A DNA stretch of 55,611 nt, the filler included, from Fonticula-like sp. SCN 57-25 (taxonomy: Eukaryota): the NCBI GenBank assembly GCA_001724245.1. It is 2 parts of 2 records of this genome, joined end to end, with 100 filler letters (N's around TTAATTAATTAA, not from the genome) between each part and the next. Parts side by side here need not be neighbours in the genome. Positions count along the whole stretch, not along the records: positions 1 to 28,824 come from MEDX01000103.1; 1 more part is not named here. The stretch is one strand, 5' to 3'. Position 1 is the stretch's first letter. Each line of letters starts with the position of its first letter. Shown piece by piece: positions 1,862-48,973 of the stretch. The notes beneath the pieces were generated by a model. It was not told the DNA's origin. It made no database searches and saw only the letters and a list, made by a program, of their open reading frames with translations. Both the position numbers and the translations under genes were made by a program.

Positions 1862-4060
1862 CTACTCGCTTTCAGCAAACTTGCGCGCGAGCACCGACGC
1901 GAGCTCCGAGTCCAACCTGCTGATGGTGCCTGCGCTCGCCGCCGCCATCTTCTTTGCATCAATGGGCCTCAGCGTGGCATAACGACTCGCGATATCGACC
2001 GGCGTTGCGGGCGTCGTAGGCGTGGCAGGCGTGACAGGCTTGGTAGACACCTTGCTCCACGTCGGCGTGTCGGGGCTTGAAGCTCCCGATTGGTCGGCAG
2101 CCCTTGGCGAGACGGGCTTGAGCGTGACGATCGGCGCGGCGAGCTTGGCTGCGTCGGTGCGGCCGCCGACCCTTGTCGCAGTGCGGCGCAGCGTCGCAGT
2201 CCACTCGGGCGTCGCCGCTGCCTTTTCGGCGTCGCTCTTCTGCGTCTCCTTCCACTGGCGGATACTTGCCTCGATGTCTGCCCCGGCGTTGGGGTTGTCC
2301 AAGCGCGCGCGGCGCTTCTGCAGACGCTCCGCAAGCTCGACTTGGGCGCCGCCGCGCGTCGTCTCCTTGAACGCGGCAAAGCCCGTAAAGCGCACATTCT
2401 CAATGTCGCTGGCCGCTATAGAGACTTGCTGGTTTTGCGAAGCGGAATTCTTCATAACTTGAGCCGTCTTGGCTTGCAGCAGGCTCTGGAGGGTCGGCGT
2501 CGAGCTCTCCGACGCGGCAGACGAGCCAGCCGATTCACCAGTCGCGCTTGACGATGGTGCAGACAAGCTTGCAGAAAGCGCAGGAGTGCTGGCAGGTGCC
2601 GTAAACGAGTTTGCGATGAGTCCCGCTGCCTTTGCTGCTGCGATCTGGGCGTCCATTGCAGGGGTGCGGTATTGCGGGATGAGCGCGGACGGCCGCTCGT
2701 TGAGCTCGGATGCACCAATGTCGGAGAGCAGCGCCAGGGTGTTTGTCCAGGGTGTGTAGAACGAATACGTTTGATACATTTTATCAATGTTGCTCGTAGC
2801 AGCCATGAGCGCGGATGTCTTGCTATAGAGCGCCTCTACGGCATCCTTTCCGCGCTTGAGCTGGTACGCGTGAGCGACCGTCGCAGGAGTGTCGCGCCGC
2901 GAGCCATCGGCTGCAGAGACGACCTCATTGGCCGCGAGGAGTCGCTCGCCCTTGGAAATGTCGTCGAGCGCATCAATAAACATATACTGCTTGACGTTGA
3001 CGTATGCATTGAGCAGCGTCTTGGCAACGAGAACGCGCGCCGCCTCGCCGACGACGCCCATGTTGAGCTCGGCATCCGTGCGCGGCGCCCCAGTAGGTGG
3101 AGAAGCAGAGGTGCGCGCGAGAGTCAACGACGGAACGGATGACTCGTCGGTCGATCCGTCGGGAGAGGTCAGCCGCGCGCGGACTGCGACGACGTTGCTC
3201 GCGCTCTCGGGGCTGGCCAGCGCAGGTAGCGTGAGCGGAATGAGGATGTTGCGCTGACGCTCCTCCTCGGCATCCTCAATTGTGATATTTACCACGCTCG
3301 CAGATACGCGCTCGATCTGCTCGCCGTTGCCGACGTGGATGTCGCCAATCACGACGCCGTCCGGCACCGAGACACGGAAGGTGGCCGAGGGGAGCGACGT
3401 AGGAAGGAACGACTGGGCGAGGACGCTCTCGAGAGACGAAAAGATCGAGTCGAGATCGGGCACCGACATGAAGCGACCACGAGGAGCAGTGCTCACAAGG
3501 TACTGTAGGAGCCCCTGGTCGTGACAATCGGTGAACCCGAGCGCCACGAGATTCGGGCGCCACTTTGACACCCGCGAGCACCAAGAAGGGAAGGCGCGAA
3601 CAAGCTCCTTGGGCTGCATGGTGTGGCCATCGGTCATAAGGATCACGGTAGGGCGACGCGCGGGCGAAGAAAGCTCTACTTGAGAAAAGGCAATCTCGAG
3701 GCCAGCACCGATATTGGTGCCGAACGTGGATACGAAAGAGCCAGAAGCACTCCTCCACGTAGACTGCTCCGACGTGAGCGAATACTGCAGTTTGGCAGTT
3801 TCACAAAACGTGATCAAAGAGACGCGATCGAGGTTCGGGCGAATGCAGCGCTCGACAAGAAAGTCGTAAGTTTTGGCAACGCGGTCGATGGGCTCTCCCT
3901 CCATCGACGTCGAGACGTCGATGACGAGAATAATGTCGACGCCCGAGGGATCGGCAAGCTCGCCGTTGCGGAACGAGACCATCGCGTTGGTTTCCACGGG
4001 GACATCATAAGGAGCAGAGCGATGCTCGAGGAGCGCAGACCAGGCCACCTTGCCGGACAT
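1862..4060 (-). CDS. von Willebrand factor A (vWA) domain protein with a low-complexity C-terminal tail
   Basis: DIILVIDVSTSM (MIDAS DxSxS), GTNIGAGL, VILMTDG, LGFTDCHD. Single 732-aa ORF with a Ser/Pro/Thr-rich tail. Confidence 0.85.
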   Translation of the reverse strand: MSGKVAWSALLEHRSAPYDVPVETNAMVSFRNGELADPSGVDIILVIDVSTSMEGEPIDRVAKTYDFLVERCIRPNLDRVSLITFCETAKLQYSLTSEQSTWRSASGSFVSTFGTNIGAGLEIAFSQVELSSPARRPTVILMTDGHTMQPKELVRAFPSWCSRVSKWRPNLVALGFTDCHDQGLLQYLVSTAPRGRFMSVPDLDSIFSSLESVLAQSFLPTSLPSATFRVSVPDGVVIGDIHVGNGEQIERVSASVVNITIEDAEEERQRNILIPLTLPALASPESASNVVAVRARLTSPDGSTDESSVPSLTLARTSASPPTGAPRTDAELNMGVVGEAARVLVAKTLLNAYVNVKQYMFIDALDDISKGERLLAANEVVSAADGSRRDTPATVAHAYQLKRGKDAVEALYSKTSALMAATSNIDKMYQTYSFYTPWTNTLALLSDIGASELNERPSALIPQYRTPAMDAQIAAAKAAGLIANSFTAPASTPALSASLSAPSSSATGESAGSSAASESSTPTLQSLLQAKTAQVMKNSASQNQQVSIAASDIENVRFTGFAAFKETTRGGAQVELAERLQKRRARLDNPNAGADIEASIRQWKETQKSDAEKAAATPEWTATLRRTATRVGGRTDAAKLAAPIVTLKPVSPRAADQSGASSPDTPTWSKVSTKPVTPATPTTPATPVDIASRYATLRPIDAKKMAAASAGTISRLDSELASVLARKFAESE

Positions 4061-4366
4061 GTTGGAATGGGATGTTGCGGCGGCCCATCACTTGCAAACT
4101 TTTATACACCGTCGCGGGATATTATTGGCCAATTACGGCGAGATCGGCTCGAATGGGGCCAATGGAGGAGCGACTTTGACGCCATTAGCCAATAGCAAGC
4201 GCGCGAGGTAGGCAGTCACCACAGTCATCGCGGCAGACCAGTGACACATCTTACTCATCACATGGCTAGATTGCAGTTTGCATTTTATCCACGTGGCCAT
4301 AATTCGCTTCCATTTTCGGCGCTTATCGGGTTCTTTCTCCCACTTGCTTCCTTTCCCCGGTCCGCC

Positions 4367-17066: not shown

Positions 17067-20000
17067 ATGGCCAACTCCTCGCCTCCGATAGAGAGCTCTG
17101 CTATGGCTCTTTTAAGTGACATGAGCTCGCTGGATCCCTTGCCGGCGGCCATGACAGCGACGCATGACGAGCCGCCGCACAGGAACAAGGACGCGTCCTC
17201 CGAGTCCACCACGGGCCTTCTTGCCGACACGAGCGCCAACTTTACGGACAGCGACAGCGACGCCGTTGTGCCCTCCGCCGCTACCAACGGAAGCGCGATC
17301 GACGGCGATTCTTCCGATGACGACTCGTCCGACGGCGACTCTTCCGACGTTGAATCTGTGGCCGTCGTGCCTGATGCCGCGCCAACGATCGAGTTAAACG
17401 ACTTTGCCGCGTCGCCCGCCTCCAATTCCAAAGAAGCCGCGCCGGCGACTGCCATTTCACCTTCTCGCACTCCCTCTGATTCGTCCGCTGGCGCTTCAGA
17501 TTCGCGTGATTCCTCATCTGACGCCAACGGCTCCTCCAAGCTGAGCCGCCGCCAGCGCCTTCGCCAGCTCCAATACGAGTACCGCAACTACATTAGCCAG
17601 TCCGCGCGCGAAGTTCGCCGCAACAAGATGCAGTTTGCGCTCGGCTGCACTTCCATCTTTCTCGTTGTTGTGATCGTGTCCGTGTCGATCTCGACGCTTC
17701 AGTACTCGCCCGTCCTCTTCCTCGGCCTCGCCGAGAGCCAGTCCGGCGAGATTGACCTTTCCATCAGCGCGACAAGCCGCACTGGCTTTTCCGGCCTCAA
17801 CTACACCCTCATCAGCTCTTTCCTCAGCGATCACGGCGACGCCAGCATGCAGTACCACACCCCGCGGCACACCTTTGAAGCGGACGTGTACAGCGGCAAG
17901 GACTGCGCGCCGTGGAACGCGAGCGACCCGACCGACTCGCAGTGGACGTACAAAACGCCGCAGGACGTCGGGCGGCCGGCAGACTACCTCGTGCGCTGCT
18001 CCAACGCGTACAGCGAGTGCCTCAGCTACAACTGCGACTACCCGCAAGCGGGCGTTTTTTACCTCATCGACTCGGAAAAGGAAAAGGAAATCGGTCTCGG
18101 ACGCTCATGGGAATACCCCAAAGTGCCCAAAGTACGCACATTCACTTCTTTATAGGCCAATTTATCTTGGAATTGTGACTAAATATGCGGCTTAGGGGTC
18201 GTGTTATGTGCAGAATAACCTGGCGAGGTCACTTGATGTTGGAGTTGGCGACTATATTTACGTGTCTGTGAAGCTGAATGATGAAGAGGCGGCGTCGTTT
18301 TATATGGTGTCGGCCGGGTACAACTTTACAGTGAGGACGAATTCGACTTATTTGGCAAATATTCCATTGAGGGTTGACGCAATCATTCCATCGACGACCA
18401 ACAAATGGAGCGCGTCAGTGAGAAATGGTACGAAAGGGGAAAGGGGAGAATAGTATAATTATGAGCATGATGAAATGATGCTGTATTGATGATGAAATGG
18501 TGTTGAAATGGTGTGAAAATGATATGGAAATGTTGATGAAATGGTCTGTTTTATACTGTACTATATTGTATAGTACTGTATTGTACTGTATTGAATTGTA
18601 TCATATTGCATTGTATTGTATTGTATCATACTGTATTGTATTGTATTGTATTGTATTGTATTGTATTGTATTGTATTGTATTGTATTGTATTGTATTGTA
18701 TTGTATTGTATTGTATTCATTGTATTCCATAGTCTATTCCTTACTATATTCCATTTTCCATTCCATTTACTAACACTCTTTCCCTTTCCCAGTTGTTATG
18801 ATTGAACTTGAAGATTTTCCTTCCCTCCTCTCCCTCGCCCTCTCCTCCTCCGACCCCCAAATCCCCCCCCCCTTCCGCTCCGCCATCGCCTCCGTCCCCC
18901 CCCACTCCGGCGTCAGCACCGTCCTCCTCAACCTCCCCTCCCCCCGCTTCGACTTTTACCGCTCCACCACCTTTGCCACCAACGCGCGCTCAGTCGTCGC
19001 GTGGTCTTCCGACACACTCTTCCTTCTCGGATTCGACCAAGTTGACGCAATTCTTCCGTGCCTTCGCGAGCTGCAAGCAACGAATTTCGCGTCGGCTTTC
19101 CTTGGACTTATGCTAAATATTGTCATTATTTTGCTGACACTTATATCGACGCTGCTCATCTATTCGCTGCTGATGATTAGCGTGGAGGCGAGGACGTTTG
19201 AGTTGGGTATTTATAGAATGGTCGGGATGAGGAGGGCGGGGCTGCTGCAGATGATTTTGGTGCATGCGTGGATGTTTGCGGTGCCGGCGTGGGTGTTGGG
19301 GTTGGTGATCGCGCAGATCGTGTTTGCGGTGGTTGCGAATGCACTCAGTAATCTCTCTAGTCTCAGTGTACGAAGGGGGATTTGGCCACGTGGTGGATTT
19401 ATGCATGATTGGTCGTGTATGGATATCTGATCTGACACTGTTCATGCACTGTTGGTATGGTTGATGTTGTGTATTAGATATATTTTTGTTTGATTGTTTA
19501 TGTGTTTTATGTTACTGTTTGTGTATTAGATATATTTTATTTTACTGTTTATGTCCTTTTTTTCACTGTTTTTCATTGATTTTTATTGATTTTCATTGAT
19601 TTTCATTGATTTTTAATGCTATCTCGACCCTCACATTCATATCTATTTCAGGTTGCTCCTCTGCTGAGCTCGCTTGGAGTTGAAATTGCGACACTTCTCG
19701 GTCTTGTCATTCCCCTTATTGCCGCCATTCTCCCTATCAAGGTACGCCTTTCACTTATACTTTCTCTATATTAACCCTTTCACTTTAGGCTGCATTGGGA
19801 AAGAACTTGCATGATGCACTTGACTCGAGCAGATCAAAAACAAAGGCCGTCGAAATTACAGTTTCGCGCGCGACGGTCGACCAGCACTCTTTTATCTTTT
19901 TCACTGTACGTCCAGAAAAAATATGATGGGGATCACGTGGGGATCAGGTGGGGATCGTGATCGTGATGTCGTGATGTCGTGATGGCGATGCTGATGCTGA

Positions 20001-23930: not shown

Positions 23931-26268
23931 ATGAACTCAAACAGCAGCAGTAGTAGCAGGCTTCCGTCGCCTCCCCTCACGGCGCCCACTGCGGGCATTC
24001 TCCCAGCGCCGACCCCCATTGTGATCCCCACGACACAGCATGCCGGCAGCTTTGACGCATCGGCGGCATCGGCATCTACCTCGCCGCGATCGCCGTCGGG
24101 GTCCGGGCACCTCGGCCAGCGCCGCGGGCCCATGCAGGCCATTCGCCAGCTGAGGCGCGCGGCCGGCGGCGCGGCAGCCGACTTTGGATCAACGGGATCC
24201 CTCGGCGGCGGGAGCAGCGTCCCGTTCCACATCGACAGGCTCAGATCCCTCTTTGGCGAGATCGAGAACGAGGTGCGCGCTCATTGAATACTTAATTATG
24301 GTGTTTCTTATGCGTTTTCCTATTTGTTTTGATATACAGGTAACGTCAATACTTGAAGAAAACCAAGCGCGTACGTCCCGTTTTATGATCTCCTCCCTTC
24401 TTTGTTTTGTTTACTGACCCGGATCCCCCATGCAGTGAGGCGCAGACTGGAGCGCTACGAACCAAACGTCGACTTTGACTACGCCGACGAGGACGTCTTT
24501 TACGAGCGCAGCGGCAAGGCGACGCCTCCTGTCGGCGCAGTGCGGGTGCGCGATCCCCATTTCCACCATCACCCGATGCCTGATGCTGATGCTGATGATG
24601 GTGATCAGAGGGAAAGGATATCGAGGAATACGTGGACGCCGACGCGCAAGTACCTCGGGCACCGCGACTGCGTGTGGGAGGTGACGATGGCGCAGGCGAG
24701 GCACGCGTGCTTGGGGACGGCGTCGGCGGACCGCACGGCGCGGCTGTGGAGCCCAAACTATCAGAGCAATGTTTACAACTATGCGGCGCACAAGGGATCA
24801 GGTGCGAGGAAAAGTGAAGAAAATTGTGTGGTTTTGAAGAGGGAAATTTATTGTTTTGCTGTTGTTTTAGTGTTGTTTTGGTGGTTTTTGCGTCATTTTT
24901 GGTGTTGCCGAAACTATGATGGTGTATTTTATGAGTTAATCTTGTCTCCTTTATGGTATCTTCTATGGTAACTTTTATGATATATTTTTTGATATATTTT
25001 ATGATGATTTTTGTGTTGTTTTCGTGACAATTGTGCATCAAATTGTGTTGTTTTTGTGTCACTTTTTTTTCCTTTTTCCTCTATTTCCACTCTTTATCGC
25101 TCTCTTTTCTCACATACTTCTTCCCATCAGTAAATTCGATTCGGTTCCACGCGACCGATTCCCTTGTCTGCACCGCTTCTGGCGACCGCACCGTCCACGT
25201 GTGGCGCATTCCCGCCGTCGTCACAAAAATCCTCGGCCAGGCGAGCGCCGTCCCCGCCGAAGCGCAGCGCCGCAACAGCATCTCGGGCGCGACGATCCCC
25301 GGCATCGACGATCTTGCCAATCTCACCGGCAAAGGTACATAAAATCCACCCATGAATCCGGTGCTGACTTTTTGGTAGTGCCGCTGGTGCGCCTGAGTGG
25401 GCATGGCGATGCGGTGAGCGCCGCCGACTGGTACGCGGGCGGAACGCGCATCGTGTCGGCTGGCTGGGACAAGGCGGTGCACCTATGGGACGCGCAGGCG
25501 AGCGGGTCTCCTTTGTCGATCTTGCCAGGTACGCGCGGGATCTCTTTTTTTGACGTTTTCCCGCCAAATTCGTGCTGATCACGCCGATCGCACAGGGCAT
25601 CAGGGCCGCGTGACGGGTGTCGCGGTGCACGCGACGGACGACGTGCTTGCGACGTCGAGCGCCGACGGGACAGTGCGGCTGTGGGACCCGCGAAAGCCGA
25701 CGGGCGTCGTCGACAGCGTCAAGGTCCACGCCGCGTACGTCTCGCAAACTGCAAACTGTGTGGCTTATGGTATCTTTTATAGAAATGTGACGTCGGTGGT
25801 GTTTTCGCGGACCGACTCTTATATTGTGACAGCGTCGGACGACCGCTACGTAAAGGTGTGGAACCTAAAGTTTATGCGGTCGCCCATCAGCATCATTCGG
25901 AACGATGCGGGTGTCAACAGGTGCGCGAGAGGGAAAAGTGGGCGCAAATTTTGCGCAAAGTGGGAAAATGGGTGTGAAAGTGTGTGGAAAGTGAGCAAAA
26001 GTGGCCTTTTTTCCTTTTCTTTCATTCTCATGCCGTGATTAGGATCGCCATCTCGCCGGTTGGGAATCTGATTGCGGCGCCGCTCGATGACGGCGGCATC
26101 CGCATTTTCGATGTGAGCGGCGGGCGCGCCATGAAGATCCCGCGCTCGCTTCAAGGGCACCGCAAGGGCGTCACCGGGACGGCGTGGGCGCACGATGACG
26201 CGGCCATCTTTTCGTCCGGGTACGCCGAGGACGTCTTCAAGTGGGAGCCGAGCTGGGGCGCGGAATAG
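23931..26268 (+). CDS. WDR37: WD40-repeat protein WDR37-like, multi-exon
   Basis: RLRSLFGEIENE coiled-coil motif; YLGHRDCVWEV, LGTASADRTARLW, YAAHKGS|VNSIRFH, TASGDRTVHVW follow the WDR37 repeat order. Confidence 0.85.
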
Positions 26269-26359
26269 ATCATAATAGGAAAGAAACGTGCCAGAAATGT
26301 AATATTATACGCTGCAACTAAATAGAAAGGAACAATTAATGAGCATAAAGAGTCATTTT

Positions 26360-26570
26360 CTAGTTCTTTCTGCTCTTCTGCTCGACATTCTTGAACCAGT
26401 TGGCGAGCTCGTTAAAGTGATCCTTGATGTTTGGAAGCTGCGAAACAAAAAGGTTAACTACCTCAAAAAGACGCAATAAAAGCATATACCTCGTAGTTTT
26501 GAGCAAGAAAGGCGCCCGCTACCGTGCCGATGGTCGCACCAGCGCTAAAAAACGTCCACCGATGGTGCAT
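26360..26570 (-). CDS. STMP1: Short transmembrane mitochondrial protein 1 (STMP1/DUF4535)-like microprotein (exons 26570-26490, 26437-26360)
   Basis: Spliced product MHHRWTFFSAGATIGTVAGAFLAQNYE|LPNIKDHFNELANWFKNVEQKSRKN carries the GxxxGxxxAQNYxxPN signature. Confidence 0.8.
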
Positions 26571-26600
26571 TGTCCCTGATGATCGCTGACAGAAGCGGAT

Positions 26601-26640
26601 TATAACCGACCAAAACCGACCAAAACCGACTATAACCAAC
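26601..26640. repeat. Four tandem 10-bp units: tataaccgac, caaaaccgac, caaaaccgac, tataaccaac
   Basis: Directly visible. A similar array lies at 16908-16946. Confidence 0.8.
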
Positions 26641-26833
26641 CCGATCGCGCGGGAAATCATCCGATGAAACGTAACCGTCCATGACTTTTGATTTAATGTG
26701 ACCTGACGAATAAAAATATGTTTCAAACAAAGAACAACGTACGTATAAAGCGGTGTCCATTTTGTTCTGTTCGTCATTCAACAACGCAGGACGCCGACCA
26801 ACGACTGCTCCACGGTACCAACGTCGCGTATCG

Positions 26834-27529
26834 ATGCGTGCCAGGGCAGAGCACTACGGCCCCCACCTGATCACCGCCGCCCATGCGCGTCGCACACTCG
26901 ATATCTCAAGGACCACGCTGCGACGCTGGTGCGACCTCGGTCGCGTGCGGTTCACCGTCGCCGATGGTAACCGGCGTTACCACGTCGCCGACCTTGAGCG
27001 TGAGCTCGGTGCCAGCGTCCCCGCGTCCACCGCCCCGGAAAAGGCGCGCGTCATCTACGCCCGCGTCTCGTCCACCCACCAACGCGCCGACCTCGACCGC
27101 CAAGTCGCCGACCTCCAGCGCGCCTACCCACAGCACGAGCTCGTCACCGACGTCGCCTCCGGGATCAACTGGCGCCGCCCCGGCCTGCGTGCCCTTCTGG
27201 AACGCGTCCTCGCAGGCACTGTCGCTGAGATTGTGGTGGCCCACCGCGACCGGCTCTGCCGCTTCGCCTTTGACCTCGTCGAGTTCGTCTGCTCCCAGTC
27301 CGCGTGCCGCATCGTGGTTCACGGTAGCCACGACACCGAGACCAGCGAGCTCGCCGACGACCTCCTCGCCATCGTCACCGTGTTTGTCGCGCGCAATAAC
27401 GGAGAGCGTTCGGCGCACAACCGGCGCCAGCGACGCGAACACGAAGCCGCAGCACGCGTCCAAGCGCCAGAAGACCGACAAGCCTCCACCCACGCGAGTG
27501 CGCAAGATACGACTCTTCCCGTCGCCTGA
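26834..27529 (+). CDS. tnpA: IS607-family serine recombinase/transposase TnpA
   Basis: N-terminal MerR-like HTH (ARRTLDISRTTLRRW...GNRRY); catalytic IYARVSS (Ser at 27068); DLDRQV; DVASGINWRRPGL; AHRDRLCRFAFDL; ELADDLLAIVTVF. Confidence 0.95.
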   Translation: MRARAEHYGPHLITAAHARRTLDISRTTLRRWCDLGRVRFTVADGNRRYHVADLERELGASVPASTAPEKARVIYARVSSTHQRADLDRQVADLQRAYPQHELVTDVASGINWRRPGLRALLERVLAGTVAEIVVAHRDRLCRFAFDLVEFVCSQSACRIVVHGSHDTETSELADDLLAIVTVFVARNNGERSAHNRRQRREHEAAARVQAPEDRQASTHASAQDTTLPVA

Positions 27530-28697
27530 CGAGGCCGCGACGCTGCGCCGCTGGGTCGGTACAGCGCGCTGGACGTACAACGCGTGCCTCGCGGCGGTCA
27601 AGGGCGGCACGCCGCGGACGCTCGCTGCGCTGCGCGCTGCATGCCTCAACGCTGATTCACCTTTGCTACAAGCGAACCCGTGGGCCGCTGAGACACCGTA
27701 CGACGTCCGCGACGAGGCGCTACGCGACCTGCTCAAGGCGTACGACAGCACCTTCGCAGCCAAGCGACCCCGCTTTACCATGCGCTTCCGCTCCAAGAAA
27801 GCGGACGCCGAGGCCATCGTCGTCCACGCCAAGCACTGGGTGCACAAGCGCGGTGTCTACGCGTTCCTCGCTCGCATGCGCGCTGCAGAGCCGCTCCCTG
27901 ATGTACTGGGGTACGACGCGCGACTCGTGCGTGAGCGCTACGGCCGCTACTTCCTATGCGTACCACTTCCGGCGCCAGCACCTGTGATCTCGGGCGAGAA
28001 CCAAGCCCGAGCACCACGCGTTGTTGCGCTCGACCCTGGCGTGCGCACGTTCCTCACCGCGTACGATCCCGCGGGCGACGCGCACGAGATCGGTAAGGGC
28101 GACGTCTCGCGTCTACACAGGCTCGCGCACGCCGCTGACGACCTCCAGTCACGCTGGACGCTCATCCGCAATGGTACCGCGTCCATCTTCCCGGTGCCAG
28201 AGCACTACGCGCACTGGTCGCGTGCAGACTACCGCCACCGACTCGTCTACCGGCAGAAGCGCGCTGCCGCTCGGATACGGCGTCGCGTACGCAACCTCGT
28301 CGACGAACTCCACCGCCAGGCGGCACGCTGGCTCGCGCGTGAGCACGACGTCGTCCTGCTCCCTGTCTTTGACACGCAACGGATGGTACGTCGCTCGCCC
28401 GCGCGAAAGCTCAGCAGCAAGTCGGCGCGCGGCCTCGTTACGTGGTCCCACTACCGCTTCCGTACCCACTTGCTCCACAAGGCACGCGAGCTCCAGTGCG
28501 ACGTCGTACTATGCAACGAGGCGTACACGAGCAAGACGTGTGGCGCGTGCGGCCACCTCCATGCTGCGCTCGGAGGAAGCAAGGTGTTCCGCTGCCCGTC
28601 GTGCGGGGCGACAGCGGACCGCGACGTTCACGCCGCGCGCAACATCTTGTTGCGCTACATGAGTACGGGGCCTTCGGCCTCGTACGTTGGGGCTTGA
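26883..28697 (+). CDS. Fanzor2 (eukaryotic TnpB-like) RNA-guided endonuclease; conserved part starts near 27490, true start uncertain
   Basis: RKIRLFP...LRRWVGTARWTYN (HTH_OrfB-like); TPYDVRDEA; RuvC-I VALDPGVRTF (D at 28032); LLPVF in place of the canonical Glu; relocated Glu in CNEAYTSKTC (28518); CGAC..CPSC zinc finger; RuvC-III DRDVHAARNI (D at 28623). Confidence 0.93.
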   Translation: MRVAHSISQGPRCDAGATSVACGSPSPMVTGVTTSPTLSVSSVPASPRPPPRKRRASSTPASRPPTNAPTSTAKSPTSSAPTHSTSSSPTSPPGSTGAAPACVPFWNASSQALSLRLWWPTATGSAASPLTSSSSSAPSPRAASWFTVATTPRPASSPTTSSPSSPCLSRAITESVRRTTGASDANTKPQHASKRQKTDKPPPTRVRKIRLFPSPDEAATLRRWVGTARWTYNACLAAVKGGTPRTLAALRAACLNADSPLLQANPWAAETPYDVRDEALRDLLKAYDSTFAAKRPRFTMRFRSKKADAEAIVVHAKHWVHKRGVYAFLARMRAAEPLPDVLGYDARLVRERYGRYFLCVPLPAPAPVISGENQARAPRVVALDPGVRTFLTAYDPAGDAHEIGKGDVSRLHRLAHAADDLQSRWTLIRNGTASIFPVPEHYAHWSRADYRHRLVYRQKRAAARIRRRVRNLVDELHRQAARWLAREHDVVLLPVFDTQRMVRRSPARKLSSKSARGLVTWSHYRFRTHLLHKARELQCDVVLCNEAYTSKTCGACGHLHAALGGSKVFRCPSCGATADRDVHAARNILLRYMSTGPSASYVGA

Positions 28698-28785
28698 CCC
28701 TTCCGTGCCTGTCGCGAGACAGCATGGTACAGGACTGAACGCTTTGTTCAGTTTTCATTCAAGCGTCCATCAATCAAAAGCTCTT
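28660..28785 (+). ncRNA. Predicted omega-RNA (fRNA) scaffold plus flank-derived guide; 5' boundary uncertain
   Basis: Consecutive hairpins: 28663-28685 (cUUCGg-capable), 28689-28700, 28703-28727 (GCGA tetraloop), 28733-28753. They overlap the Fanzor stop codon and end near the inferred right end. Confidence 0.7.
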
Positions 28786-28824
28786 AAAAGCGACTGGAAA
28801 ACAACTTGAAAGTGCGTTAAAATA

Positions 28825-28923
28825 NNNNNNNNNNNNNNNNNNNNNNNNNNNNNNNNNNNNNNNNNNNNTTAATTAATTAANNNNNNNNNNNNNNNNNNNN
28901 NNNNNNNNNNNNNNNNNNNNNNN
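28825..28923. other. Artificial contig linker / assembly gap
   Basis: N-run, TTAATTAATTAA (stops in all six frames, 28869-28880), N-run. Confidence 0.95.
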
Positions 28924-31530
28924 NGGGCGCAATGGGCCATGAATTCACAGACACTTTCATATGTTTGTCTACGAGCGAAAGTACAGGTGCGTTTGGCTTT
29001 GCTCTATTCATTTCGTGCTAAAAATCGATGCACAGGAGACGCAGCAGCGCGGCGAGGTTGCCTTGCGGCGAGTGCTCTTTTTAGAGGACGGGCGGCAGGA
29101 AATAACGCTTGATGTGACGCTGCCGCCGCGCTTTGGGCGGCACCAGATGGAGGACTTTGAGTACATGCACCTGCCGTGCTCGCGCACCGTCCCCGAGGCA
29201 AACTCGCACATGGAGCTCGTGCGCGTGGACAACAATGCGCTGTGCCTGTGCCTGCAGTGGCTCGACGACTCGTCGACCTCGCGCAACATCAACATCAGCG
29301 TCTTTTTAATATACTCGCGCTGCAAGGTGGACTTTGTCATCCCGATGTCGTCGGCGTCGCCGAGCGCGGTCGCCCTCACACAGGTCTTTTTCACCACGCT
29401 AAGTGCGCTTGTTTGCTTTTCATTTTTTCCGTTGCTCACCGTTTGCGCCAGACCACATGTTGGTAATCTACCTTCCCGGTCACTACCTGCAGCTGCTCGA
29501 CTGCAGCTCGGACCACGACCCGTGCCACAGCTTTTCCGCGCTTGGCCCCGACCGCGTCCCCCCTCTGCCCGGCCAGGACGAGTCGGGCGACAGCGCGGTC
29601 TTCCTCACGCACATTGAATCGATCCCGAACGTGGTGCTCGAAGCCGACTCGCCAGCCTCGGCGATGGCCGTGGGCGGTTTCGGGTTCGCCATGTTTGACA
29701 GCCGGACGGACACGGCCTACAGGTACCGGTTTGACGAAAAGGCGCTGCTGGACATGTTTGTAAAGACGCCGCCGGGGATCGCCCACGTGCAGGCGATGCA
29801 CCTCGCGCTCGCGCACCTGCAGGACCCGCAGCTCGTCCTGCGCATCGTGCGGACGCTGTGCGACACCCAGCCGCGCACCGTCACGGCCGACCTCTTAAAA
29901 GAGTTTTTGATTGGGACGACGTACATGTCGATCCGCAGCCTAAAGACGGACGCCGGCTTCAAGGTCGACGCCGAGTACCTGCGCCTGCTGCCCGTCACGA
30001 CGCTCGCGAGCATCGTGGACGAGCTCGAGGAGCGCCGGCGGCCGGCCGAGCGCGCCACGAGCATGCAGACTGTCGGCGAGGAGCAGTACCGCCCCTTCAA
30101 CATTCGCGCCGGCCAGCGCTTTTCCTTTGAGCTCATGCTCGGGCCGCCGTCGCTCCTGTCAAAGGCCGTCCACGCGCAGCCGTCTGGGCTCGCTTCGTCA
30201 TTCCTGGGAAGCCCGCGCTGGCGCAACCGGTTTGACAACGTGCTCTCGCGCGTGTTTGGCAGCCCGAGCCCCGACCGTACGCGCTTTTCTTCTTCTTTGT
30301 CTCTTTGTACTGACATTGTCTTAGCGTCGACGACGCGGAAGCGCTCCGGGAACGACGACGTTGACGACGACAACCGCCTTCGCCAGCGGTTCCTCGACGT
30401 CCTCACGCACTTTACGTCGACGTTTGTCTCCAAGGACGTGCGGCCGCGCTGCGCGGGCTACTCGGCCGAGTATGCGCGCTGCCAGTTTGCGCAGGCCGCG
30501 CAGCTCTGGGGCTGCATCGACGACACAGAGGGGTGCGCACCTACATGTGCAGCTTGGCCGTTTGCTGAATTGAACCTGTTAGGTTGCCGAATATCCACCA
30601 GCTTTTGAGGGAGCACCGGCAGGGCGCCTCCATGCAGCAGTATCTCCCGATGTTCCAGCTGCTCGAGAGCATGTACTGCGCCATCGAGGAGCTCTACTAC
30701 CCGTTCCCCGACTCGTACCACAGCAAGTTTGCGGTGCTGGGGTTCCACGTTCTTCCGCGACAGTGCGCCGCCCCTAGCTTGCATTTCGTATCACTAAACT
30801 CTTCCTGCAGTGTGTATATTCAGTATGTTGAGCGCGGTGTGTTCCGCATGACCGAGGCCGTCATCGAGCACATTGTCGTCCAGGTGCTCGGCGAGGCCAC
30901 GACCGAGGCCGACCAGCACTTCAAGTGGCTGCTTCTCTCGCGCGTTCGGTCTAGGGTACGCCTTTTCTCGCCCCTTTTTCTTTTGTTTTCGCGCATGCAC
31001 TGACATTTTTGTTGCAGAAAATCTTTGAGAAAATGCTTCGCAAGATTCCCGACGCCGCGACCAAGGTGGTCGAGCTTGCCATCGCGTCCCACCTCGGCAA
31101 CTGTACGACACACTTTATTGCGCTCGCGCGTCTCACGCTGTGCACGTAGCGTTTGATGTGGAGGACGAGGACGACGGCGAGCCGGAGTCGGCGGACCTTA
31201 CCGATGACCAGTTGGTACGCGACGCGGACATCCGCATGTCTTTGGCTGACGCAGTGTGGACAGGACGCGGCAACAAAGGAGCAGGTCGATCTGGACGAGC
31301 CCAGCTTTATCCCTCTCAGTGTCTTTTTGCAGCACCTGCGCAACAAGGGCATCCGCGCGTCCGAGCTCACGCACGCGTCGCGGACGCTGGCGCACAGCTT
31401 TGAGCCGTCGGCGTCGTTTGAGGCGCTGCGGGCCGGCAGCGACCCTGGCATGCTGCGCAACGGGTCGAGCCCATCGTCCGAGCTGCTGGCCGCGCATAGA
31501 GCGACCGCGCCGCGAGCGGGTGCCGTGTAG
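28924..31530 (+). CDS. GSAP: Gamma-secretase-activating protein (GSAP/pigeon)-like, 5'-truncated by the gap, multi-exon
   Basis: [16 protein letters not shown]...PCH and the C-terminal GSAP-16K-like [23 protein letters not shown]...LGFHVLP...QYVERGVF. Confidence 0.75.
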
Positions 31531-47680: not shown

Positions 47681-48973
47681 ATGCGTACCGCCGCAGTCTT
47701 GGCTGTGGCCGTTGCGCTGCTCGCCGTTGCGTCGGCTCTGCCGGCGTACACGCGCACCGTTCGCTATGATGGCGAGAAGGTTTTCCGCTGCCAGTTTGGC
47801 CCCCAGCGCGCCGTGAACAGCGCCATGTACCGCCTCATCATCGACCAGGGCCTCGACATCTGGGGCCGCACCGAGGACTACATCGACGTCCGCGTCAAGA
47901 AGGCCCAGTTCGCTGAGCCTACCGTCCGCAACCTCATGTCCCGCTGCGACGTTCTCCATGCCGACCTCGAGGCCGTCATGGCCGAGGCTGATGCCAAGTT
48001 CCTTGCCCGCCGCGAGGCCAAGAAGGCCGAGTGGTTCGAGGACTACCACACCTACGACGAGATCAAGGCCTGGTATGAGGACCTTGCCAACACCTACAGC
48101 GACTTTGCCACCTTCATTGACTCGATCGGCACGACCCTCGAGGGCCGCGACCAGTTCGCCTTCACCTTCACCTCGTCCAACGGCACCGCCCTCAAGCCCA
48201 AGATCTTCTTCCAGTGCCAGATTCACGCCCGTGAGTGGATCAGCGGTGCCACCTGCGGCTACGTGATCAACGAGCTCCTCTCGACCTACGGCTCGAACGA
48301 CGAGGTCACCGCCATCCTCGACGCCGTCGAGTTTGTCGTCATCCCGATCCAGAACCCCGACGGCTACGCCTACACCTGGTCGAACGACCGCCTGTGGCGC
48401 AAGAACCGCAACCCCAACACTGGTGGCTGCGCCGGCGTCGACCTCAACCGCAACTACAACGACCACTGGGGCCAGGGCGGCTCGTCGTCGAGCCCCTGCT
48501 CGGACACCTACATGGGCCCCTCTGCCAACTCTGAGCTCGAGGTCCAGAACGCCATTGCCTTCTTCAAGGCCAACGCCCCCGTCATCGGCGGCATTGACTG
48601 GCACTCGTACTCGCAGCTGATCCTCCGCCCGTACGGCTGGACCCGCAACGACTCCCCCGATGAGGCCCAGCTCAAGGCCCTCGGCGACGGCATGCGCGAG
48701 GCCATCCGCGAGGTCCACGGCGTCAGCTACACCTCCCAGAAGTCGATCGAGCTCTACACCACCACCGGCACTGCGTCCGACTGGTTCTACGGCGAGGAGG
48801 CCACCGAGACCAACGACGGCTACCGCGCCGCCGGCTTCACCATCGAGCTCCGCGACACTGGTCGCTATGGCTTCGAGCTCCCCGCCGAGCAGATCATCCC
48901 CACCGGCGAGGAGTGCTTCCAGGCTGTCCTCTTCTTTGTCAGCGAGCTTGTTGCCAACCCGATCAAGGCTTAA
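47681..48973 (+). CDS. Secreted M14A zinc carboxypeptidase with propeptide
   Basis: Signal peptide; YHTYDEI, IHAREWIS, NPDGY, RLWRKNR, GVDLNRN, DWHSYSQ, FTIELRD.G.YGF.LP..QI. Confidence 0.95.
   Translation: MRTAAVLAVAVALLAVASALPAYTRTVRYDGEKVFRCQFGPQRAVNSAMYRLIIDQGLDIWGRTEDYIDVRVKKAQFAEPTVRNLMSRCDVLHADLEAVMAEADAKFLARREAKKAEWFEDYHTYDEIKAWYEDLANTYSDFATFIDSIGTTLEGRDQFAFTFTSSNGTALKPKIFFQCQIHAREWISGATCGYVINELLSTYGSNDEVTAILDAVEFVVIPIQNPDGYAYTWSNDRLWRKNRNPNTGGCAGVDLNRNYNDHWGQGGSSSSPCSDTYMGPSANSELEVQNAIAFFKANAPVIGGIDWHSYSQLILRPYGWTRNDSPDEAQLKALGDGMREAIREVHGVSYTSQKSIELYTTTGTASDWFYGEEATETNDGYRAAGFTIELRDTGRYGFELPAEQIIPTGEECFQAVLFFVSELVANPIKA

Follow-up and report, generated by a model that had tools for sequence, protein, structure and literature searches.

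A predicted omega-RNA scaffold with a pseudoknot at the 3′ end of an IS607-type Fanzor2 transposon from a Fonticula-like eukaryote

A stretch of 55,611 nucleotides, filler included, from the genome assembly of Fonticula-like sp. SCN 57-25 (GCA_001724245.1; this whole stretch is hereafter the window, and its positions 1-28824 come from MEDX01000103.1) holds an IS607-type transposon with two genes, tnpA for a serine recombinase and a long reading frame for a Fanzor2/TnpB RNA-guided endonuclease. A preliminary description of the sequence had predicted a structured omega-RNA at the 3′ end of the nuclease gene. Covariance models, tests of pseudoknot pairing and contigs of a related copy lead us to propose that positions 28659-28766 (+) are very probably the omega-RNA (reRNA) scaffold of this nuclease, encoded at the end of a transposon of ~2.1 kb.

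The element and the fold at its 3′ end

The element and its genes lie as follows.

about 26686-28766, + strand: IS607-type Fanzor2 transposon, ~2.08 kb; ends taken from contigs of a ~90% identical copy and precise to a few nt
26834-27529, + strand: tnpA, IS607-type serine recombinase, 231 residues from the ATG at 26834, in a frame other than that of Fanzor2
26883-28697, + strand: Fanzor2/TnpB reading frame, 604 residues, with its core from about 27495 and its stop codon at 28695-28697; assigned by Pfam and alignment with ApmFz2

The recombinase belongs to an open reading frame at 26753-27529 that matches Pfam Resolvase (1.4e-19) and HTH_17 and carries the motif IYARVSS in its translation; the first ~200 codons of the Fanzor2 frame overlap tnpA, in the +1 frame of the latter. 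Pfam finds HTH_OrfB_IS605 and Cas12f1-like_TNB (TNB 6.1e-20) in the 604-residue frame, and its best relative of solved structure is ApmFz2, the Fanzor2 of Acanthamoeba polyphaga mimivirus (9B0L; 3.8e-23 by sequence search, 6.2e-44 by profile), the N-terminal ~200 residues lying outside the reach of the profile search of solved structures. Residues D384 (in LDPGVRT), E546 (in NEAYTSKTC) and D581 (in DRD) align with the catalytic D324, E467 and D501 of ApmFz2, and each is at least 90% conserved among 36 sequences. The protein combines the marks of Fanzor2 and pro-Fanzor nucleases, a RuvC triad with its glutamate shifted towards the zinc finger, a DPG motif and a C4 zinc ribbon. Judged from these alignments, the catalytic triad is intact and the nuclease is nearest to ApmFz2. 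A protein search gave 1073 relatives among 7999 scored candidates, with top identities of 92%, 83% and 59% followed by many relatives at about 50%, often on contigs of ~2 kb. A single-protein scan of viral contigs returned zero relatives, but profile scans did recover loci, 78 viral and 80 from metagenomes, with identities of at most 46%.

From the last codons of the nuclease gene to the flanking DNA, the predicted RNA is laid out as follows.

28659-28766, + strand: predicted omega-RNA scaffold; best match of covariance model R2 (described below), which also gives the 5′ end; stability z -4.35
28663-28685, + strand: H1 hairpin, 28663-28672 with 28676-28685, 10 bp, inside the last codons; from RNAfold
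28689-28700, + strand: small hairpin, GGG 28689-28691 with CCC 28698-28700, around the TGA at 28695-28697; loop GCUUGA 28692-28697
28703-28727, + strand: H2 hairpin, 28703-28707 and 28709-28713 with 28718-28727, 10 bp, C28708 bulged; from RNAfold
28733-28753, + strand: H3 hairpin, 28733-28740 with 28746-28753, 8 bp; from RNAfold
28759-28764, + strand: predicted pseudoknot 3′ strand, UCAAGC, exact complement of GCUUGA 28692-28697
28765-28766, + strand: right end of the element, GT, the last two bases in common with the related copy
28767-28787, + strand: predicted guide; start taken from the divergence of the copies, length assumed from published guides of 16-21 nt

All four stems drawn in the preliminary description are present where it had placed them: RNAfold recovers H1, H2 and H3, the small hairpin turns up in the fold of 28647-28765, and the stability of the whole is far beyond chance. 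For 28655-28790 the minimum free energy was -53.2 kcal/mol, whereas 200 dinucleotide shuffles averaged -35.2 and never reached it (z -5.21); that of the 108-nt scaffold itself, 28659-28766, was -48.9 (0/200 shuffles), and the minus strand gave -42.0 (z -2.20, 3/200 shuffles). Three G-U pairs, G28668-U28680, G28705-U28725 and G28733-U28753, are available to the + strand only; together with the strand asymmetry, they indicate that the fold belongs to a + strand RNA. The structure overlaps the stop codon as had been claimed, with TGA 28695-28697 inside the small-hairpin loop, and the C-terminal codons do encode both protein and RNA, the 5′ part of the scaffold being the last 12 codons and the stop. 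The UUCG and GNRA tetraloops fared less well. Their letters are present, but RNAfold closes H1 on a 3-nt loop despite the letters cUUCGg, neither loop sequence is conserved among homologues, and in a ~90% identical copy of the element (see below) the change 28714 G>A turns the H2 loop from GCGA to ACGA, with which the GNRA reading is lost. The ARNILLR codons at 28637-28655 also form a perfect 7-bp hairpin, which was considered as an extra scaffold stem and rejected because it is not conserved within the subfamily of the window.

A hairpin at the end of a gene is often a sign of 3′ end formation, and the stems lie within 100 nt of the right end; they might be read as acting in DNA, as right-end sites of the serine recombinase, or in the mRNA, as a structure that forms or stabilizes its 3′ end. 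We consider such a reading very unlikely. The G-U pairs and strand asymmetry indicate a + strand RNA, a recombinase site or terminator would leave the covarying long-range pairing between loop and 3′ end (see below) unexplained, and the architecture matches that of solved and tested TnpB/Fanzor2 RNAs. IS607 recombinases, moreover, work on double-stranded DNA (PMC10711439).

Covariation, pseudoknot and right end

A covariance model built from the window alone (R1) matched seven loci (L090, L007, L125, L001, L040, L084 and L091); with default filters it found few relatives (7 and 1 matches), it aligned H3 and the 3′ tail inconsistently, and some of its matches were false ones on the minus strand. 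A second model (R2), built from those seven homologues with the window excluded, was applied to 99 of 159 sources (the window plus 98 loci, 502,707 bases). It matched 33 times at E ≤ 1, without exception on the TnpB strand. Its top match was the window at 28659-28768 (66.5 bits, E 1e-19), and a comparison of coordinates showed that 31 of the 33, the window and 30 others, straddle the 3′ end of the TnpB match. When Rfam was searched with positions 26000-29500 of the window at E ≤ 1, a single match was obtained, a chance one to a long non-coding RNA at 26093-26323.

Covariation across the 3′ ends of related elements, a check proposed in the preliminary description, exceeded that of shuffled controls. 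In an R2 alignment of 32 distinct rows and 19 pairs, 95.2% of paired cells could pair against 59.9% after shuffling, 203 cells held double changes against 59.4 in shuffles, and the covariation score was 0.789 against 0.175 (0/500 shuffles), falling to 0.075-0.163 when partners were slid by 1-3 columns. Double changes occurred in 17 of the 19 pairs: 9/10 in H1, 2/3 in the small hairpin, whose stem reads GGG/CCC, GGU/ACC, GCA/UGC or GAG/CUC across the family, and 6/6 modelled pairs in H2. A hairpin of at least 5 pairs stands at the place of H3 in 21 of the 22 homologues with a located pseudoknot strand. The 3′ ends share a recurring plan: a first hairpin is followed by (G/U)UUGG-N, a loop and N-CC, one or two more hairpins come next, and an exact complement of the loop closes the series. 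Counted from the model start through the 3′ strand, the scaffolds span 90-139 nt, with a median of 109 nt and 106 nt in the window.

The scaffold of the window lies on the + strand and starts 36 nt upstream of the stop codon, an arrangement repeated in 29/29 family members, where the stop falls +18 to +209 nt from the scaffold start; overlap of gene and RNA is therefore the rule. In three loci (the window, L001 and L128) the stop codon lies within the pseudoknot loop. Such overlap invites the explanation that the conservation is a by-product of coding for the C-terminus of the protein, since H1 and the small hairpin lie in codons and, in a sister subfamily of greater size (L028, L035 and others), the codons of GARGIFLRA, a conserved motif of the catalytic region, form the hairpin that precedes the small pseudoknot hairpin. 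We regard this as extremely unlikely: members of the subfamily to which the window belongs end in different C-terminal tails (STGPSASYVGA, TNKEVVDSSTIVGT, TVTSKEPVYAGAGTYPLGSS), yet every H1 among them is a perfect hairpin of differing sequence; in the window, H2, H3 and the 3′ strand are all 3′ of the stop codon; and the position of the stop itself varies over the range just given. Relative to the protein, the RNA module sits ~13 codons further downstream in the window's subfamily than in the sister subfamily.

The preliminary description had also proposed a pseudoknot, in which CTTG (28693-28696) pairs with CAGG (28730-28733). A pseudoknot is supported, but with a different partner. The CAGG pairing, four pairs including one G-U, is physically possible; the loop finds a 4-bp match within the 9 nt that follow H2 in 8/29 homologues, which is about chance, and this pairing was rejected. 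RNAfold pairs 28692-28697 with 28759-28764, two strands that can form six Watson-Crick pairs, and comparison of the family's sequences identifies 28759-28764, just before the right end of the transposon, as the conserved and covarying predicted partner of the loop. Anchored on the model, with the 33 rows reduced to 26 loci (three of those removed were odd or weak, one was a duplicate and three had too short a downstream sequence), a loop complement of at least 5 nt lies 10-90 nt after H2 in 21/26 loci (shuffled loops: mean 6.3, maximum 13 in 1000) and one of at least 6 nt in 11/26 (mean 1.4, maximum 7), with 17 distinct loop sequences among them; the corresponding counts were 6 and 1 in reversed downstream sequence and 4 and 2 in upstream coding sequence. 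An independent anchor, GGG-N5-8-CCC, gave 10/16 loci against 2.1 expected from cross-locus controls, a result reached in 0/100,000 simulations. Computationally, a 5′ apical loop is complementary to ~5 nt beside the predicted guide.

A chlorovirus-like subfamily (L065-L069, L072, L073, L075 and L077), which has no tnpA match, carries a longer and different scaffold that R2 missed. It has the same pairing of loop and 3′ end, in several compensatory variants: AAGUUA/UAACUU, AAUUCU/AGAAUU, AACGUA/UACGUU and AAUUUC/GAAAUU, plus one case of 5 of 6. Where one genome carries several copies, these begin to differ 1-2 nt beyond the 3′ strand of the knot.

Related copies also delimit the element of the window. 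Four sequencing runs, all DNA metagenomes, contain the stretch or its relatives (contigs compared over 26200-28825). In two of them (X2 and X3) a ~90% identical copy at another insertion site matches the window up to 28766 and is unlike it thereafter, with 33 differences over 28398-28766 in X2 record 14 and 12 over 28632-28766 in X3 record 22. This divergence suggests that the scaffold ends 2 nt after the 3′ strand of the knot, at the right end of the transposon to within a few nt, and that the guide, drawn from the flank, begins near 28767. The preliminary description had extended the scaffold to 28785; we shorten it, as the structured unit stops near 28766 and 28767-28785 is flank and predicted guide. 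On the left, the X2 contig of the related copy begins matching at 26686, the X3 host-flank contig breaks at 26706, and the flanks of the two copies differ before 26686 (...CCATGAC against ...GGGGGA). The X1 contig runs on past 28824 into sequence other than that of the window's next part, which indicates that the end of the window's contig is not the end of the element. Positions 28826-28925 are a 100-nt spacer of 43 N, TTAATTAATTAA and 45 N (lengths approximate) at a contig join, so that the two halves of the window need not be neighbours in the genome and the true sequence 3′ of the stop codon amounts to 128 nt only.

Several repeats mark the junctions. CGTCCAT is found at both (26676-26682 and 28764-28770); beside it, within 26675-26693 and 28763-28783, CTTTTGAT at the left is the reverse complement of ATCAAAAG at the right, and ATCAAAAGC also stands 3′ of the knot in L001 (about 4279-4288); these repeats may reflect a target preference of the recombinase. 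In about 10/22 relatives GG follows directly after the 3′ strand, which fits the GG crossover published for IS607; GC, AC or AG stands there in several others.

Within H2, the related copy carries 28710 T>C together with 28721 A>G, a compensatory change from U-A to C-G, as well as 28705 G>A (G-U to A-U) and 28708 C>T in the bulge. These changes bear on the possibility that the window holds an inherited relic, an inactive copy of the element whose omega-RNA is present by descent and idle in this genome. The runs that contain the stretch are all DNA runs, the window has a single copy (neither sequence comparison nor R2 found a second one in it), and among the contigs over 26200-28825 there was no junction across the whole element, no contig bridging an empty site and no circle junction. 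The long N-terminal frame is uninformative in the window alone, where 43.5% of synonymous shuffles are also open because G+C is high. Both genes are nevertheless intact with their catalytic residues, and the ~90% identical copies at another insertion site, in other runs, keep H2 by compensatory change; we judge a relic unlikely.

A number of observations weigh against an omega-RNA scaffold with the structure drawn here. The column-wise covariation counts cover H1, the small hairpin and H2; H3 and the pseudoknot's 3′ strand resisted column-wise alignment, R1 having aligned H3 and the 3′ tail inconsistently. The covariation alignment was fitted to the structure of the model and is biased towards it, and the seven seeds of R2 were themselves found with a model derived from the window. 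Without an anchor, the test of the pseudoknot was weak and too noisy (6 nt in 34/111 loci against a shuffled mean of 23.3, maximum 31; 5 nt in 63/111 loci against 58.4); it was superseded by the anchored tests, and a regular expression taking only the first GGG...CC had mis-picked several loci. As drawn, with six loop bases paired above a 3-bp stem, the knot has zero connecting loop bases, and its register may for this reason be 5 bp, as in most relatives. In the related copy, 28666 C>G (H1) and 28736 T>G (H3) would break pairs unless their partners also changed. The window has GU after the 3′ strand where most relatives have GG, and none of the sequencing runs found to contain the stretch was an RNA run.

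Place, strand, architecture and covariation nonetheless fit a TnpB/Fanzor2 omega-RNA, as the preliminary description had supposed, and we propose the following course of events for a scaffold of this kind. The transcript of the nuclease gene would run past both its stop codon and the right end of the element to include flanking sequence, and its 3′ part would fold into H1, the 3-bp hairpin, H2 and H3. The loop at 28692-28697 would pair with 28759-28764 to form a pseudoknot, the protein-binding core in the TnpB/Fanzor2 family, and the next 16-21 nt, from about 28767, could serve as guide, published guides having this length (PMC10711439 and PMC11832414). The complex of nuclease and RNA would cut DNA matching the flank beside a transposon-adjacent motif, the target would be the empty site, and cutting would favour re-copying of the element (homing). 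Production, processing and binding of the RNA, the length of its guide, the adjacent motif and homing are features that we infer by analogy with the systems compared below.

Nested reading frames and genomic setting

The two genes of the element are nested: tnpA (26834-27529) lies in another frame within the Fanzor2 frame (26883-28697), and 49 nt separate their start codons. The N-terminal 200 residues of the 604-residue frame, rich in Ser, Pro and Thr, might be taken for an out-of-frame artefact over tnpA; this explanation was dropped, as residues 23-200 can be aligned with the N-terminal parts of long relatives, including one from a eukaryotic transcriptome, and the long N-termini have the motifs PFWN..S, SWF and SSPSSPCLS.SI in common. 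A second tblastn match to this N-terminal query, run with the low-complexity filter off, lies at 47916-48392 (+; 29% identity, E 5.6e-11) and is probably compositional only. In L001, where tnpA spans 2329-3129 and the Fanzor2 frame 2468-4195, a 575-residue ATG frame overlaps tnpA likewise, with a G+C of 49% in the overlap and 41% in the scaffold match.

After dereplication, 67 loci had tnpA on the same strand; in 64 of them a reading frame of at least 350 codons lies in the +1 frame of tnpA and is continuous with the TnpB core. The overlap with tnpA has a median of 578 nt (322-712), and the first ATG of the long frame follows the ATG of tnpA by a median of 25 nt, often by only 4-10 nt. Shuffling of synonymous tnpA codons predicts 280.5 stops in the +1 frame where 64 were counted, and 2.3 stop-free loci where there are 41; the +2 frame has 14 stops on average and is never open. 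In L079, at about 829-901, a ~70-nt AT-rich insertion breaks the tnpA and Fanzor2 frames at the same place and looks like a spliceosomal intron in a eukaryotic copy.

We tentatively suggest, as a proposal that falls somewhat short of probable, that one transcript may yield the recombinase and Fanzor2, both by leaky scanning, as well as the 3′ guide RNA. Since the pseudoknot loop contains the stop codon, any one molecule would then be either translated or folded into the scaffold, but not both. Leaky scanning, if true, would solve the expression of a two-gene bacterial transposon from a monocistronic eukaryotic mRNA, and the nested frames would represent a widely conserved case of dual coding that bears on how eukaryotes and giant viruses express a prokaryotic transposon with two genes. 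A full-text literature search on Fanzor and IS607, covering main texts, found no description of this nested arrangement of tnpA and Fanzor2. If confirmed, it would matter more than the scaffold.

The neighbouring genes of the window are eukaryotic in type (ArfGAP-BAR-PH, NFACT, PCIF1_WW and ubiquitin-AN1), and the intact IS607/Fanzor2 element sits in a eukaryotic nuclear contig. Together with the Resolvase match, these genes place the nuclease where Fanzor2 proteins reside, in a eukaryote or its virus and within an IS607-type element with a serine recombinase. A TTGTA-type microsatellite array occupies 18526-18741, in an AT-rich stretch.

Comparison with known systems

Omega-RNAs of TnpB and Fanzor2 that overlap the 3′ end of the gene and contain a pseudoknot have already been described, solved and tested, and the scaffold of the window is the biology expected of such an element. 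ApmFz2, the closest solved protein, has the same shifted catalytic glutamate, and its RNA likewise comes from the 3′ end of an IS607-type element: its cryo-electron microscopy structure shows a pseudoknot that links the 5′ 45 nt to positions -4 to 0 beside the guide (PMC11832414), so that a 5′ part of ~45 nt is knotted with the last ~5 nt and stem-loops lie between. The RNAs of ApmFz2 and the window have no detectable sequence similarity, and they differ in layout. The scaffold of ApmFz2 is 205 nt long and lies mostly downstream of the gene, whereas that of the window is about 106 nt and starts 36 nt inside the gene, with the stop codon in the pseudoknot loop; and the motif GGG of ApmFz2 fits the GG after the knot in many relatives, where the window has GU.

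Among bacterial systems, the reRNA of ISXfa1 has three stem-loops and a knot between an apical loop and the bases flanking the guide, and its scaffold ends at or just past the right end (PMC10711439). A compensatory mutant showed that the pseudoknot is needed by ISXfa1 TnpB, and the same text predicts the knot in Fanzor2 RNAs (PMC10711439). ISXfa1 has a GG crossover at both ends (PMC10711439), while the matching bases of the window are not GG and the ends of its element are roughly placed. The omega-RNA of ISDra2 TnpB (IS200/IS605) comes from the 3′ end of tnpB and the right end, with a pseudoknot core and a guide from the flank, as cited in PMC10711439 and PMC11832414; ISDra2 differs in its Y1 transposase, its single-strand hairpin ends, its motif TTGAT and the canonical position of its catalytic glutamate. 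Fanzor1 (SpuFz1, 8GKH) is likewise a eukaryotic nuclease derived from TnpB with a guide RNA encoded at the 3′ end. The pseudoknot is reported as common to Fanzor2 and TnpB RNAs and lost in Fanzor1 (PMC11832414), and the RNA of the window, which by prediction keeps the knot, sits with Fanzor2 and TnpB.

To these systems our analysis adds a covariance model with 31 loci of the class among its matches and no counterpart in Rfam, an intact IS607/Fanzor2 element from a eukaryotic nuclear contig, and a corrected structure, pseudoknot and 3′ limit for the element of the window that have comparative support. It also points to a class of unusually short scaffolds, of about 90-140 nt compared with the 205 nt of the solved Fanzor2, which is of interest for smaller genome editors.

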